DNA of 32,204 bases from Fidelibacterota bacterium (GCA_046861645.1 JBHHUM010000024.1:1-32204); one strand, 5' to 3'; positions 27,001-32,204 are shown, numbered from the stretch's first letter. A program made the numbers.

Positions 27001-30000
27001 CCTGAAGTGAAGGTTTAATATTCAAAATGATGATAATATTGAGTTATTTTACTATTGAGGATATAGTCTGGTATGATTAGGATATTTGTTTTGGATGATC
27101 ATGCTATAATCCGAGAAGGATTACAACGCATTATCTCAAAGACCAATGATATAAAAATTGTAGGAGAAGCCGGGGATGCCAAAGAAATTATCAAGAAGGT
27201 AGTGAATCGTGAATGGAAAGTGGATATAGTACTACTGGATATCACACTTCCTGGCAGAAGCGGTATAGAAGTGATGAATGAACTAAAAGCCATTAGACCC
27301 GAGTTACGTTTCCTTGTTCTTAGTATACATCCCGAAGATCAGTATGCAATTAGGGCTCTCAGATCAGGTGCTTCAGGGTATATGACGAAGGATAGCGCAC
27401 CTGAACAATTAGTCGGAGCTATTCGAAAAATCTTTTCAGGAGGAAAGTATATCAGTCCCAGTCTTGCTGAGAGACTGGCCAGTTATGTTCGACAAGATTA
27501 TGATAGACCTGTTCATGAAACCCTTTCCAACCGGGAATTTCAGGTAATGTGCATGATTGCTTCTGGGAAGACAGTCTCTGAAATTGCTAAAGAATTGACT
27601 CTAAGCGTAAAAACTATCAGTGCTTATAGATCTAAAGTATTAGAAAAAATGAACATGAAAACAAATGCTCAACTGACTTTGTATGTTCTTCAGAAGAAAC
27701 TGACAGATTGGTCAGCTGTATAGTAGAGAATTCTCTTACAATATATCCATAAATTATAAGACAAAATCCTTAGTTAAAAGTAGGTACAGTCTTATGTAAA
27801 AAATCGGATACGTCTGATTTTCAATACTAAACTCTTAGCGTACATTATCCTAGAAGCTCTTTTCCAGCTAAAGTACATACAAAATGAGATTGATTGCTAT
27901 GAAATCACATAATGAAAGTAATAGTTGTAGATGATTCAGAAATCGTCCGGAAGAGAATAGATAACATGTTGTCAAAACTGGAAGGAGTTGAAAACGTATT
28001 TGTCGTGAGTAGTCGTAACGAAGCCATTGCAATGCTTGGAAAACGAAAGTTAGATGTGGCTATCATCGATATTCACCTCCCTGAGGGTAGTGGAATAGAA
28101 CTCTTGAAGTATATCAAAAAATATTTTCTGAATATGAAGGTAATTATGCTCTGTAATTCCGCTTTAATCCAATATCGTAAAATATGTTATGAAAGCGGTG
28201 CTGACTTCTTTTTCGACAAATCATCTGAATTCGAGGAAGTAAGTAAGCTCCTTCTTCGGATAAGTGATACAAAACCCCAAAACTCAACTTAATTGAAAGG
28301 AGTTCATACCATGAAATGGAAATATCAAAAGCCCCTAGGTTTTTTAATAGTCTCGTTGAGTTTATTCTATGGTTGTGAAGGACCTCAAGGACCAGCAGGC
28401 GAACCTGGAGCTAACGGTAGTGATGGTGTCGATGCTACTGCACTACCACCCGCTAACACTTTTTTCAGTTTAGCTGTAAATAATAATGCTGGAGATATGC
28501 AATTTGGATCATTTGTCAATTATTTGGCTTTCGATTCAATCGATGCTGAGATTTCAGTAAATTATCCTGATGCTCCTCAGGTAGTGTCCTATAAAACCCC
28601 TTTACCTCCAGAAATTGACGGTACTGAAGCCGAAGGTGAATGGATAGGAAGTGGAGCTACTATCTCCCTCGAACTGATCGAGGAATTTGAGAAATATGAT
28701 GGAATAGATCCACCAGGTGTAACCTCGGTAAATGTTAAGGCCATGTATGATGAGTTATATGTTTACTTTCAGCTTTCATGGAATGATGCTGATGAAAGTG
28801 ATGAATTAAGCAAACTTGAATATAATAGTGCGACTGGTTGGAGTAGTTCAGGGAATGAGGATCGATTTTACTTTCATTGGCCAATTACTGGCTTTCCCGA
28901 CACTGATTTTGCCGATGGGAATGGCTGTGATGCCTTCTGTCATTTCGACACTAATGCCGCTAATGGAAAAGGTTATATGTTTACAGAATTTCCAGATCAG
29001 TTAGTAGATACCTGGCAATGGAAAGCTTGTCGTTCCAATCCTAAAGGCTACGTTCATGATAAACACTTGATTTACCAGGATGAAGCTAATTTAGTTGACT
29101 TAACAACTAAATGGAGTGGACGTAAGGGAGATCAGGGGAATGATCCCTATATTGAAAATAAATTACAAAGTACTGGGTTTCCTAAATATATGCACATCAA
29201 TGATCCCAATGCTAACGCCGGTTATCCGTCATTCACATATGAAATGATACCCTTCGATACGTCTGCTTTATTTAATGATGGGGCGACGATTCCAGGGATT
29301 TTTCTGAGAGATCCGAACGGAAGCGGAGCTGATGTCCATGCAAAGGGTATATATTCCGATAACGGTTGGGTTGTTGAACTCAAACGTCTTCGAAATACTG
29401 GTCATGGTGATGATCATCAGTTTCTTCCAGAATAATCATTCTGTAAAATTAGTAGAATATGGAAATGCTAATTATGAATCCTAATAACGGGGAATGGGGA
29501 AAACGCGAATAGCGGTTTTAAGCTATTTATACACGGTAGGGGCATTCTGTGTATTTGGGTTTTTATCTGCCCAGAATGTCCCTTATTCTAATTTCCTAAG
29601 TGGTGAAAATACTTATATTTCCTATTGTGCACCATGTCATGGAGTTAGGGGTGATGGCCACAGCCCGGCGGCAAGAGCAATGTCTCCATCTCCCCGAGAT
29701 TTTTCCTCAGGATTGTACAAATTCAGGTCGACCCTATCAGGATCTTTACCTACCGATGATGATTTAATATTGTCTATAAGTAACGGACTACCAGGCACTT
29801 GGATGCCTAGTTGGAAAGGTGTTCTTTCTGATGAGCAAATTGAAGACGTAACTGCTTATATAAAAACTCTCTTGAACAGTGAGCAGAAGTGGAAACAATC
29901 GGAGTCTCTACCCTCACTTTCATATAACCCTCCTTTGGCTTCATCAGAATTATTGAGGGATGGTAGAGGATTTTATCTGTTACTTGAATGCTGGACTTGT

Positions 30001-32204
30001 CATGGTTTGGATGGAAAAGGAAATGGACCCTCAGCAATGGCTTTGAAAGATAGTAAAAACAAGCCAATTAAACCTACAAACTTAACGGAGAAAAAATATC
30101 GTGCAGGTACTTCAGTTACAAATATTCGAAAAACGATTCTGACTGGTCTTACAGGTACACCGATGCCAAGCTACAAGGATCTTTTCCTTTTGGCTAAGGA
30201 GGATATTAATGAAATAGAGTTTTCGAAAGATTTACCACACTCCAGTAGAGAGATTTTTCACAGTTTTGTTTCACAACTTCCTTCAAATACTGAATTGAAC
30301 AGTCTGACTGAAGAAATGATTACAGAACTTTCAATCAGGAATGAGTGGGCATTAGCATATTATGTACGTTCTCTAATAAAGAAAGAAAGTTGGTACGATT
30401 GGTTGTTTAGATCTAATCCAGAGGATGTACAACTTTCTGAATAGTAAGATTAATCTTTTTCTCTTTACAACATGTTTAATATTCTTGATTACATGTGTAG
30501 GTGATGGTGTAGGTCTGGATGAGTTTGGAAATCCTATCGCTCCTGAAGATTCGACAGATTCTACGGGTAATGGTGATAATGGTTCAACAGGTCTGAGAGC
30601 AACGCTTAGTAGCATTCAGACGAATATATTTGATCAAATCTGTGCTGTCAAGTGTCATAAATCACCCCGGCCTAAAAAGAATCTTAATTTGGAGACGGGA
30701 AAAGCTTATGATAATCTTGTAGATATTCCGAGTAAAGAGATACCGGCAATGATGCGTGTTCTGCCAGAAGATTCAGAAAATAGCTATATCATCTGGAAAT
30801 TAGAGGGGCGTGATGGTATAAATGGGAAGCAAATGCCTCTGAATCAGACACCCTTAGAAGATAATCAGATTCAGGTTATCCGAGATTGGATCGATGCAGG
30901 AGCATTGCCATGAAATGGAGAATAATGAAAATTATCTTCGTCTTTTTCATCCTATTACACATCCGATCAATTTATGCTGAACCGTACATTGCCATTCGTA
31001 CCGGATTTAAATGCAGTCAATGTCATGTAAATTTAACTGGAGGCGGGAAACGAACTGACTTAGGGAACATTTTCACTTTAAAATTTCTTCCCTTTCATTT
31101 CATAAAAACATCCCAACCTGTGATATTTTCTCCACAGCTTTCCCGTACTGTCTCTGTTGGTGCTAATCTGCGTATTTATAACTCAATTACCTATGGATAT
31201 ATCGATACGTCTGGAATACTGACTCCAGATGATTATTTATTAGACATAACCGAGGGTAATATTTACATGGAAGTCAGATTGATACCGGAAGTATTGACGC
31301 TATACTTTGATCAGATGGTAAGTCCTAACCCCGGTAATAGAGAAGCCTTTGGTATTTTACAAGGTCTACCATTTAATGGATACATTAAAACCGGTAAAAT
31401 TCTCCTTCCTTATGGACTGAGGCTATGGGATGATAATGTCTTTATCAGGGAAGCAACAGGTTTCAACTACTCATCACCAGAATTAGCTGGAGAAATGGGA
31501 TTTGAACCTGGAAATTTCTCGATAAGTTCTGCTATTACAAGCGATCAGTTTTCTGGTCTAGCTTATTGGATTCGAAAACATGGAAGAGTTGGATTCTCTT
31601 GGCAAAAAGCGACTGATGGGTCGAAACTTTTTATGTTAGGTTCTTTTGTGGGTTTCCATGCAGGTCGATTTACTTTTCTGAGTGAATTGGATCGTATTCA
31701 ATTTTCTAACATAAAACAGCAGGTCTATTTTGCGGAGTTGGATTTTTTATTGGTTCGTGGTAGTAATTTCAAGTTATCATACAATCTACTCGATAGAAAC
31801 CTTAATGTACCTATAGATCGAGATGGACAGGAAAGAATTACCCTGGGATGGGAAGTCTTTCCGATTCAATTTTTTCAATTTTCAATATATTATCATTTTA
31901 ATCGCTTTATTCCACAAAATATCTCTTTAAATCGAGATATGTTGGAGATAGAATTACATTTTTTCTTTTGAAAAGAATATGAATTGAGTTATTTAAAAAG
32001 TCCATTTATTATGATATAAATATTGGTTAAATCCTAAATGAAGATAGAGTGTATTGATCTTAACTGAAATATTTTCATTTAATTTTCCAGAGTCTTTCAA
32101 AAAGTTAAACTTAAAGATAGTTCATATTCCTCAGGATAGAATGTTAAATGGATGTATATCAAAAGTTGTGGTGATTTTGTTATCGTATGGAACACAAGAC
32201 AAGT

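Follow-up and report, generated by a model that had tools for sequence, protein, structure and literature searches.

A short fused cytochrome-porin and its FoxE-type lipoprotein partner as a candidate outer-membrane redox module in a Fidelibacterota bacterium

Organisation of the locus

The window, a stretch of 32,204 nucleotides from a Fidelibacterota bacterium (GCA_046861645.1, JBHHUM010000024.1), contains regulatory and redox genes on its plus strand (Table 1). The stop codon of the 162-aa lipoprotein overlaps the start codon of the 353-aa barrel protein, with the sequence ATGA at 30910-30913. The 316-aa dihaem cytochrome matches PDB 6h5l_B with an E-value of 1.2e-46. The EB_dh lipoprotein, for which the first-pass annotation had used the ATG at 28311 as start, has a collagen-like Gly-x-x linker, and its CX3CH motif is kept in 5/5 orthologues and in a paralogue on contig C167. 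The Pfam matches confirm the identities earlier given to these two neighbours. In the 350-aa protein, CISCH lies within a weak cytochrome c'-like stretch ahead of the cupredoxin, whose ligand pattern H...CxxHxxM is kept in 19/19 aligned sequences.

Table 1. Features of the window and of the second gene pair of the genome (contig C180)
Feature	Position (nt)	Strand	Residues	Evidence or remark
Protein with CISCH, cupredoxin and CarboxypepD_reg-like parts, 350 aa	23480..24532	+		Weak Pfam hits
Sensor histidine kinase	24529..27018	+		CHASE4, HAMP, 2-3 PAS, HisKA_3, HATPase
LuxR-type response regulator	27073..27723	+		PF00072, PF00196
Stand-alone receiver (CheY-like)	27912..28292	+		PF00072, E 1.1e-20; immediately followed by the EB_dh ORF
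EB_dh (DOMON-like haem domain) lipoprotein, 380 aa	28293..29435	+		PF09459, E 2.6e-24
EB_dh lipoprotein, CDAFCH	28926-28943		212-217	
Periplasmic dihaem class-I cytochrome c, 316 aa	29494..30444	+		PF13442/PF00034, two stretches; 2 CxxCH
Partner, predicted monohaem FoxE-type class-I cytochrome c lipoprotein, 162 aa	30425..30913	+		Sequence, profile, fold
Partner, lipobox Cys			24	
Partner, Gly/Asp/Ser-rich linker			~25-60	
Partner, CAVKCH	30641-30658		73-78	
Partner, Met-Pro			137-138	
Short fused cytochrome-porin (predicted), 353 aa	30910..31971	+		ORF
Barrel protein, signal peptide			1-23	
Barrel protein, CSQCH	31012-31026		35-39	
Barrel protein, 16-strand barrel			81-353	
Second barrel	C180 8785-9894			Motif CITCHLNPTGGG, C-terminus VHLWF
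Second partner	C180 8406-8807			CTTDCH, lipobox LLAGC

The barrel protein and its family

The sequence statements of the first-pass annotation on ORFs, motifs and C-termini were all reproduced. The signal peptide of the 353-aa protein, MKWRIMKIIFVFFILLHIRSIYA, precedes a mature N-terminus that reads EPY and begins at the invariant E24. CSQCH, the only CxxCH, lies 12 residues into the mature chain and is directly followed by the family signature VNLTGGGKR, while the C-terminus is LHFFF with a near-invariant H350. The AF2 model (pLDDT 87.6, pTM 0.83) contains 16 strands. The best solved folds are the phosphate-selective porins OprP (Z 24.6) and OprO (Z 24.5 and 24.3), superposing with an rmsd of 2.5-2.9 over 272-276 aligned residues, in agreement with the beta-barrel fold proposed before. 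In the haem segment the model scores low, with a pLDDT <50 for residues 19-34 and averages of 54-72 per 10-residue block over residues 31-60. OprP and OprO (PDB 2O4V, 4RJW) have no haem domain and no sequence match to the family, and a search with the profile of the short barrel family against PDB chains returned 0 hits at E≤10. Likewise, no Porin_O_P (PF07396) match was found at E≤1, the likeness to Porin_O_P being one of fold only. As had been reported, no Pfam or NCBIfam match at E≤1 is obtained for the 353-aa and 162-aa proteins, the barrel on C180, the protein with a Cyc2-like N-terminus on contig C43 and the Cyc2 of this genome.

A scan of all ORFs in the genome for an N-terminal CxxCH together with an aromatic C-terminus recovered the same four barrel-type proteins with a single such motif as listed previously, on contigs C43, C78 (the window), C165 and C180. 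The pair is indeed present twice: the C180 barrel aligns with the 353-aa barrel at 25.6% identity over 363 aa (tblastn, E 1.3e-16) and its partner with the 162-aa partner at 36.6% over 93 aa (E 2.6e-13). Also in line with the earlier description, c-type cytochromes flank both pairs, namely the dihaem cytochrome c in the window and, on C180, a T9SS-tailed PSCyt1 cytochrome together with a small dihaem cytochrome of CytoC_RC-like type.

The short barrel family comprises 214 homologues, extended by a profile search to 1952 representatives at E≤0.001; this family size of about 1950 counts clusters at 50% identity. CxxCH occurs at the same place in 118/120 homologues listed, the other two being N-terminally truncated fragments, and in 129 of the 145 further representatives from the profile search. 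The remaining 16 consist of 15 fragments starting past the motif and one sequence (P0231) with a different N-terminus. All 224 full-length members carry a CxxCH-x-N-x-T-G-G-G-type signature, and in these alignments the conservation of the haem motif is far beyond chance. Taken as a whole, the data support a large, unnamed and unannotated family of proteins combining a monohaem N-terminus with a 16-strand barrel.

The protein has the fold of anion and general porins, and the invariant columns include many Arg, Glu and Asp residues, which could line a selective pore. The protein might thus be a solute porin with a haem-free CxxCH (a metal site or disulfide) and coincidental cytochrome neighbours. 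This is highly improbable, as hundreds of divergent members share an invariant C, C and H at a single position right behind the signal peptide, and the region aligns in register with the Cyc2 haem site; Cyc2 binds haem and oxidises Fe(II) in vitro according to the available text of PMC13692758. The gene neighbours described below, a cytochrome partner in 53/62 loci and a dihaem cytochrome c homologue upstream of the pair in 38/58 loci, argue against it as well. The 353-aa protein is very probably a haem-bearing outer-membrane barrel related to Cyc2.

Relation to Cyc2

Cyc2, which includes Cyt572, is the fused cytochrome-porin iron oxidase of Acidithiobacillus, Zetaproteobacteria and Gallionellaceae. 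The short family shares with it a signal peptide, a single CxxCH near the mature N-terminus and a 16-strand barrel with OprP/OprO as best templates, the same templates as reported for Cyc2 in the accessible part of PMC8406198. The motif ahead of the haem site, A-x-P-x-hydrophobic-A-..-T-...-CxxCH in general form, is also of equal length, with AEPY[IL]AxRTGxKCxxCH in the short family and AxPxFAR[QK][TY]xxxCxxCH in Cyc2; distant members of the short family read AVPRFAARTG.

The first-pass annotation considered the family distinct from Cyc2. This view probably does not hold, since the profiles align over their full length and both domains do so independently. In hhalign, the short family matches the genome's Cyc2 family, here represented solely by sequences that share at least 51% identity with one Cyc2, with a probability of 81% and an E-value of 1.2e-5 over 322 columns, the haem motifs being in register. 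Taken by part, the haem region alone gives a P-value of 1.6e-5 and the barrel alone 6.3e-6, while the cross-controls of this comparison give no match (0.64 and 0.43). The barrel similarity is confined to the C-terminal half of the Cyc2 profile. A haem-less Porin_O_P-like outer-membrane protein of the same genome, used as control, gives a probability of 0.2-0.5%. With a second Cyc2-type subfamily, only the haem region of the short family matches (probability 90%). Based on the profile alignments and the cognate N-terminal motif, the short family would be a divergent short branch of the fused cytochrome-porins and a remote relative of Cyc2.

The published Cyc2 criteria were taken from the available text of Keffer et al. 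2021 (PMC8406198). The 353-aa protein has the signal peptide with a single N-terminal CXXCH and, in the AF2 model, the C-terminal 16-strand OprO/OprP-like porin. Where Cyc2 has AXPXFAR[Q/K][T/Y], it reads AEPYIAIRTG, which is of the same length, and in the region of the PXL motif, about 4 residues after CXXCH, it reads CSQCHVNLTGGGKR. It does not reach the length of at least 365 aa used by FeGenie and as a tree filter. At the family level, PxFAR[QK][TY] is found in 0/224 full-length members versus 114/120 Cyc2 homologues (a count that accepts S at the A position, as in the genome's own PSFSRKY), in keeping with the lack of PxFAR noticed earlier. PXL is found in 0/224 versus 118/120. As the Cyc2 motifs are missing, among them the haem-packing PxL, the surroundings of the haem may differ from those in Cyc2, and with them its potential and the substrate.

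The barrel could also simply be a known Cyc2, with its differences reflecting ordinary divergence. The shared domain order, fold and motif length favour this, as does a neighbouring cupredoxin of the same type. However, besides the two absent motifs, 89/224 full-length members fall below the 365-aa cut-off, and the CxxCH-x-N-x-T-G-G-G-type signature of all 224 does not occur in Cyc2. HMMER cross-hits between the two families reach 12-22 bits at most, whereas two true Cyc2 subfamilies align with each other at a probability of 99.6% (E 5e-24). Moreover, the available parts of PMC8406198 and PMC13741234 describe no obligate FoxE-like partner of Cyc2. A plain Cyc2 is therefore improbable. Unlike Cyc2, the short family is about 70 residues shorter (median 369 versus 421 aa in the compared sets), has CxxCH-V-N-x-T-G-G-G-K-R, a C-terminal HxFF and an invariant Glu as first mature residue, and is accompanied by a conserved, translationally coupled FoxE-type lipoprotein.

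The FoxE-type partner

The partner profile matches FoxE (5mab_A) with an E-value of 2.7e-8 in two stretches, corresponding to both haem domains, and hydrazine synthase alpha with 1.4e-8. Structurally, the partner superposes on FoxE with a VIA Z-score of 7.3 and an rmsd of 3.1 over 92 residues (28% identity). Profile and modelled fold alike mark the partner as a monohaem cytochrome c of the FoxE type. FoxE, described as an Fe(II)-oxidising cytochrome of phototrophs (PMC10654088, available text), is a dihaem cytochrome c of Rhodobacter ferrooxidans SW2 (PDB 5MAB). Both have a Met distal ligand in an (R)MP motif. The partner differs from FoxE in having one domain (residues 61-162) with one haem site instead of two, a lipid anchor and a CX3CH motif. 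In addition, the partner is encoded with the barrel, whereas FoxE is encoded with foxY (a PQQ protein) and foxZ; no such Pfam hits were found among the ORFs of the window.

Residues C24, C73, C77, H78, M137 and P138 of the partner are invariant, and Met-Pro is kept in 61/64 partner sequences. The haem motif varies from CX1CH to CX5CH among relatives. The small lipoprotein with a CxxxCH motif previously noted in front of both barrels was thus found again, as CAVKCH and CTTDCH, and CxxxCH as such represents just one form of a CX1-5CH site that varies, rather than a fixed trait. The homologous partner lies directly upstream of the barrel in 53/62 loci from at least six phyla, with paired loci in Neomarinimicrobiota, Fibrobacterota, Gemmatimonadota, Latescibacterota, Calditrichota, KSB1 and Rhodothermales.

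Gene neighbourhood and proposed function

Homologues of the 350-aa cupredoxin adjoin family barrels in other phyla and the genome's Cyc2, where the paralogue scores 25.3 bits for Copper-bind, above the cut-off. In total, 18 loci contain a cupredoxin homologue of the type found beside this Cyc2. Cupredoxin and dihaem cytochrome neighbours are again a likeness to Cyc2, as in the rus operon (PMC10654088, available text). COX1/COX2 genes lie downstream of the pair in loci L027 and L030, three Fibrobacterota loci carry an EB_dh-cytochrome c fusion, and the genome itself has two COX1 genes.

The barrel and its partner are probably an electron-transfer module. As main reading, they would constitute a two-part outer-membrane redox module with Fe(II) as the most likely donor, to which we assign a rough probability of 55%. 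Taken on its own, Fe(II) as the physiological donor is a tentative assignment, held at somewhat below even odds. After cleavage of the signal peptide, one c-type haem would be attached at CSQCH, near the new N-terminus, and the rest of the larger protein would form the OprP/OprO-like barrel. The partner would be lipid-anchored, with a His/Met-ligated haem at its CX3CH variant site and a flexible linker of about 35 residues, and presumably forms a physical complex with the barrel. A small reductant (in the likeliest case dissolved Fe(II)) would reach the barrel haem through the pore. From there, the electron may move to the tethered cytochrome and along a chain of periplasmic dihaem cytochrome c, EB_dh haem protein and cupredoxin that ends at a haem-copper oxidase. 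Expression is probably under the control of the adjacent two-component system.

Electrons could also flow in the opposite direction, from the periplasm via the barrel haem and a surface-exposed lipoprotein (cf. MtrC) to extracellular acceptors, for instance Fe(III), Mn(IV), humics or another cell as partner. The PSCyt1 cytochrome preceding the C180 pair is probably surface-attached because of its T9SS sorting tail, multihaem cytochromes of this genome contain 8, 13 and 32 CxxCH, and in loci L013 and L025 the pair has CydA-like membrane cytochromes nearby. The low haem potential of a Cyc2 homologue, -130 mV (PMC13692758, available text), would permit either direction. Nevertheless, such an outward conduit is unlikely: one or two haems are few for spanning a membrane, no CymA/NapC-type quinol dehydrogenase was seen in the window, and the neighbours are of the high-potential type (cupredoxin, class-I cytochromes, haem-copper oxidases), as in iron-oxidation operons. 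For the surface cytochrome with the T9SS tail and for the large multihaem cytochromes, outward transfer is nevertheless an equally good fit, which counts against the main reading.

Like MtrCAB, PioAB and MtoAB, the proposed inward-directed module combines an outer-membrane barrel with cytochromes, has a separate lipoprotein cytochrome (as MtrC) and would transfer electrons across the outer membrane. In contrast to their 26-strand barrels and decahaem wires (PMC8406198, available text), it has 16 strands and one haem per protein, and no sequence relation between the short family and these systems was seen.

Distribution and significance

The family is present in 97/301 sampled genomes of the phylum (about a third), a larger number than the known iron oxidisers, and this counts against the Fe(II) reading. 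Gemmatimonadota pairs mostly lack the dihaem cytochrome and the cupredoxin and lie beside an aldehyde dehydrogenase gene, a setting that fits a general function better than energy-yielding iron oxidation and speaks against the main reading. This minimal two-gene form, with no downstream electron carriers nearby, and the wide occurrence in heterotroph-rich lineages (Gemmatimonadota, Fibrobacterota and the phylum itself) would suit an iron-handling module not serving energy, in which iron is oxidised or reduced at the outer membrane for uptake, detoxification or redox sensing. Rrf2-family regulators flanking the cluster in L027 and L030 and the dedicated two-component system of the window point the same way. 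Such a role is nonetheless quite doubtful, as neither FeoB nor a TonB receptor as regular neighbour was found by Pfam among plus-strand ORFs near the barrel in 20 loci, and the linkage to oxidase and cupredoxin in several phyla points to respiration.

In genomes and metagenomes, neutrophilic iron oxidation is mainly inferred through Cyc2 as genetic marker. Because the family fails the PxFAR, PxL and length (≥365 aa) filters, Cyc2 screens using them exclude it; current marker-gene screens are therefore blind to the module, leaving a blind spot in iron-cycle surveys. A bolder and more speculative proposal is that the barrel and its FoxE-like lipoprotein represent an unrecognised, ancient and widespread module for iron oxidation (or electron exchange) in FCB-group phyla and Gemmatimonadota, with ccm taking a CX1CH-CX5CH continuum. 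If true, the Fe(II) oxidation capacity of Marinimicrobia, Fibrobacterota, Gemmatimonadota and relatives would be systematically underestimated, and the cytochrome c maturation machinery would accept this whole range within one protein family. The variable Cys spacing of the partner offers a natural series for studies on haem attachment. With a Cyc2-like barrel and a FoxE-like cytochrome constantly paired, two iron oxidases that had been treated as separate systems are brought together, and the two-protein system is a simple case for how one or two haems move electrons across the outer membrane. The sixth haem ligand of the barrel protein could come from the invariant Glu24, as first mature residue, or from the C-terminal His350; an N-terminal haem ligand would recall cytochrome f.

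Gene organization of the window

Based on ORF prediction and Pfam matches, an unbroken run of genes was found on the + strand between positions 23480 and 31971 of the window. It ends with a small haem lipoprotein (hereafter the partner) and a protein in which an N-terminal CxxCH precedes a predicted barrel (the barrel), the two genes overlapping by ATGA and the latter ending 233 bases before the contig end. Searches of both proteins against Pfam and NCBIfam gave no match at E ≤ 1, in agreement with the first-pass annotation, which had also described a barrel and a CxxxCH lipoprotein as a pair occurring twice in this genome. 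Every particular of that description was borne out by the ORFs on the window's contig (C78) and, on contig C180 of the same genome, by tblastn and a family-profile search; over the whole assembly (2.5 Mb, 184 contigs, 94% complete), these searches retrieved exactly one further pair. On either side of it lies a cytochrome gene: one encodes a PSCyt1 cytochrome bearing a T9SS sorting tail, the other a small dihaem cytochrome that is CytoC_RC-like.

Gene run ending with the barrel in the window (C78) and the second pair on C180
Contig	Position	Strand	Feature	Remarks
C78	23480-24532	+	350-aa protein	CISCH, cupredoxin and CarboxypepD_reg-like domain
C78	24529-27018	+	PAS/HAMP histidine kinase	
C78	27073-27723	+	LuxR-type response regulator	
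C78	27912-28292	+	Lone receiver	
C78	28293-29435	+	EB_dh lipoprotein	PF09459, E 2.6e-24
C78	29494-30444	+	Dihaem class-I cytochrome c	
C78	30425-30913	+	Partner, 162-aa lipoprotein	CAVKCH
C78	30910-31971	+	Barrel, 353 aa	CSQCH at residues 35-39; C-terminus LHFFF
C180	8406-8807		Partner	CTTDCH; lipobox LLAGC
C180	8785-9894		Barrel	25.6% identity, E 1.3e-16; profile E 2.7e-37; hhalign Prob 99.7%

The barrel family

A word-indexed search returned 214 relatives of the barrel at E ≤ 0.001. A single CxxCH stands at the same place in 118 of the 120 relatives listed among them, the other two being N-terminally truncated. When a 58-member profile was run against 1.84 billion representatives, 1952 matched at E ≤ 0.001; tightening the threshold to 1e-10 and to 1e-30 left 942 and 323. 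The haem motif was present in 129 of the 145 new sequences listed from this search (15 of the 16 exceptions are fragments starting past the motif). The mature protein starts, right after the signal peptide, with a Glu that is invariant, and the N-terminal consensus reads AEPYxAVRTGFKCSQCHVNxTGGGKRTDFG. The sole name given to these proteins by the sources is "hypothetical protein".

An AF2 model built from the family alignment (pLDDT 87.6, pTM 0.83) predicts 16 strands in residues 81-353. Among solved structures it most resembles OprP (Z 24.6, rmsd 2.6, 272 residues), then OprO (Z 24.5 and 24.3) and further porins of 16 strands. The profile of the family alignment (A1) found no chain at E ≤ 10 among PDB sequences. 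Seven family representatives of 394-426 aa (P0217, P0224, P0230, P0233, P0247, P0252 and P0257) have an additional CxxCH around residues 122-143, and in P0129 (583 aa) an insert of about 220 residues separates the haem motif from the barrel.

Relation to Cyc2

In Keffer et al. (PMC8406198), Cyc2 is defined by AXPXFAR[Q/K][T/Y] upstream and PXL downstream of CXXCH, 16 strands and a minimum of 365 aa. To this definition, 224 of 265 family sequences were compared, namely those that start with M, are at least 320 aa long, have CxxCH within the first 75 residues and have a hydrophobic C-terminus. The first-pass annotation had claimed a lack of the PxFAR signature for the two barrels of this genome; across the family, PxFAR[QK][TY] occurs in 0/224 and PxL in 0/224; 89 are shorter than 365 aa, and all 224 share the signature CxxCH-x-[NSD]-x-x-G-x-[GA]. 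In contrast, the upstream motif is found in 114 of 120 Cyc2 homologues (with S also allowed at the A position) and PxL in 118 of them. The upstream motif of the new family is nevertheless cognate to that of Cyc2, the distance from A to the first Cys being 13 residues in both, and distant members of the new family have AVPRFAARTG.

The genome also encodes a canonical Cyc2 on contig C165 (432 aa, containing IPSFSRKYKTSCSTCHYAYPKLNAFG) and a divergent one on C43, for which hhalign against the Cyc2 alignment gave Prob 98%, E 1.3e-13. An hhalign comparison of A1 with A2, the alignment of the C165 Cyc2 and 35 homologues, gave Prob 81% and E 1.2e-5; the match spans 322 columns and brings the haem motifs into register. 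The haem regions alone matched at P 1.6e-5 (31 columns) and the barrels alone at 6.3e-6 (127 columns, in the C-terminal half), compared to 0.64 and 0.43 in the cross-comparisons of haem and barrel parts. With a second Cyc2-type alignment (A4), A1 matched at Prob 90%, limited to 34 N-terminal columns that are in part signal peptide, so that homology of the barrels is drawn from A2 alone; between A2 and A4, the match reaches Prob 99.6%, E 5e-24. Based on these profile comparisons and their controls, the new family probably belongs to the fused cytochrome-porins as a remote branch. The earlier view of a distinct family thus holds insofar as the motif counts place it well outside what is called Cyc2, and has to be narrowed with regard to this probable remote kinship.

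As a control, and as a candidate haem-less relative, the outer-membrane protein at 22117-23469 was compared as well and ruled out (hhalign Prob 0.5% against A1 and 0.2% against A2). This 450-aa protein, encoded directly upstream of the cytochrome-cupredoxin gene, has a weak Porin_O_P match (E 9.5e-4), lacks CxxCH and ends in VVAQF.

For a Ghiorsea Cyc2 homologue, Cyc2 activity and a low-spin haem "within the barrel" have been reported (PMC13692758). No description of the new family or of a Cyc2-FoxE pairing was found by full-text literature searches or in passages of the Cyc2/FoxE papers PMC8406198, PMC13741234, PMC12442345, PMC10654088, PMC8114936 and PMC13692758; supplements and the deposited (figshare) trees of the Cyc2 papers, which lie outside this statement, might contain family members.

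The partner lipoprotein

Next, 63 loci from species-representative genomes were compared. By their record titles, 19 are Gemmatimonadota-type, 15 Fibrobacterota-type, six Marinimicrobia/Neomarinimicrobiota, two each Latescibacterota and Calditrichota, and one each KSB1 and Rhodothermales, with three under other labels and 14 unclassified. A partner homologue lies directly upstream of the barrel by BLASTP in 53 of the 62 loci with at least 700 nt of upstream DNA, and a divergent small CxxCH protein takes its place in six of the nine loci without a BLASTP match.

In an alignment of 37 partners, the lipobox Cys24, C73, C77, H78 and M137-P138 are invariant. The fold assignment rests on a wide VIA search and a profile search. 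In the profile search, hydrazine synthase alpha was matched in its cytochrome domain (E 1.4e-8) and FoxE in both of its haem domains (E 2.7e-8). The AF2 model (pLDDT 82.5) has FoxE as its closest fold (Z 7.3, rmsd 3.1, 92 residues, 28% identity) and PccH as the second (Z 4.7); Foldseek returned nothing for it at E ≤ 0.001, the best match being hydrazine synthase at E 0.2. Partners with the canonical motif match Cytochrome_CBB3 with E-values down to 1e-6.

The haem site differs between lineages. Of 64 sequences, 32 have CX2CH, 15 CX4CH (Gemmatimonadota), nine CX3CH (the window's clade), five CX1CH and one CX5CH, the other two being wrongly picked ORFs, and Met-Pro is kept in 61. Since seven of the nine CX3CH-bearing ORFs in the genome are cytochromes or members of the barrel/partner clusters, CX3CH appears to function as a haem site in this organism. 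Five Marinimicrobia-type partners directly upstream of a barrel (loci L027, L029, L030, L060 and L062) have C-x-C-H at the aligned site and keep the distal Met-Pro; so short a spacing is not known to serve as a haem c attachment site.

EB_dh and multihaem cytochromes

EB_dh proteins normally bind haem b. The EB_dh lipoprotein of the window has a conserved CX3CH (CDAFCH, residues 212-217, window 28926-28943) within an insertion that is kept in 5/5 Marinimicrobia orthologues and in a paralogue on contig C167 (47644-48609, CSSMCH); Fibrobacterota EB_dh domains lack the motif. This conservation suggests covalent haem attachment in its DOMON-like fold. Against the PDB, the protein found no chain at E ≤ 0.01. 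Large multihaem cytochromes with 8, 32 and 13 CxxCH, each with one additional CX3CH, are encoded elsewhere in the genome (C142 11065-14735; C167 49917-51062), the 13-haem gene lying near the C167 EB_dh paralogue.

Neighbouring redox genes and putative function

Of 58 loci, 38 encode a dihaem cytochrome upstream of the pair; it is mostly missing in Gemmatimonadota. The closest solved relative of the one in the window is PDB 6H5L chain B (E 1.2e-46, over residues 35-228), which was deposited under the name of a conserved hypothetical cytochrome and is cited in a preprint as a Kuenenia HAO. Among NCBIfam models, the window's dihaem cytochrome scores best with cytochrome 579 (Leptospirillum iron pathway), the 49.9 bits being far under the cut-off of 280. 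Eighteen loci have a homologue of the cupredoxin protein, in many cases immediately downstream of the barrel, and the pattern H...CxxHxxM is kept in 19/19 aligned sequences. The same type of protein follows the genome's Cyc2 gene (Copper-bind 25.3 bits, above cut-off). A Pfam scan of + strand ORFs near the barrel at 20 loci (101 proteins) further revealed EB_dh fused to a dihaem cytochrome at three Fibrobacterota loci, CydA-like cytochromes at two loci, COX1/COX2 and Rrf2 regulators at two Marinimicrobia loci and a multi-cupredoxin protein near the KSB1 barrel. The genome itself has two COX1 genes and no CydA. These neighbours recall the rus operon, for which PMC10654088 gives the order cyc2-cyc1-cup-cox-rus.

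The canonical Cyc2 locus (L003, C165 5501-17184) comprises a histidine kinase, a sigma-54 response regulator, Cyc2, a cupredoxin + CarboxypepD_reg protein, a second cupredoxin, a Fer4_5 protein and a COX2-like cupredoxin fused to cytochrome c.

The evidence from sequences and models supports an outer-membrane barrel with a predicted haem, which would act together with periplasmic carriers and a tethered cytochrome c. From the homology to two iron oxidases and the operon make-up, we infer that Fe(II) may be the electron donor. Several observations speak against a purely lithotrophic role: the family is present in 97 of the 301 genomes sampled from the phylum (68 of the 190 of high quality; 41 of 104 genera), it occurs in the bare two-gene form in Gemmatimonadota, a surface cytochrome lies at the C180 locus, and the genome has large multihaem cytochromes. 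The module may therefore serve outward electron transfer or iron handling instead.

Origin of the sequence

Three window proteins, a penicillin amidase, an LVIVD-repeat protein and a PKD protein (5913-8144, 8963-10369 and 14968-17745), carry T9SS C-terminal sorting domains, indicating that the organism is a T9SS-bearing member of the FCB group. No RNA run was found to contain window 28293-31971. Four DNA runs were found to contain it; they come from a single study, are labelled hydrothermal vent metagenome and may be the source.
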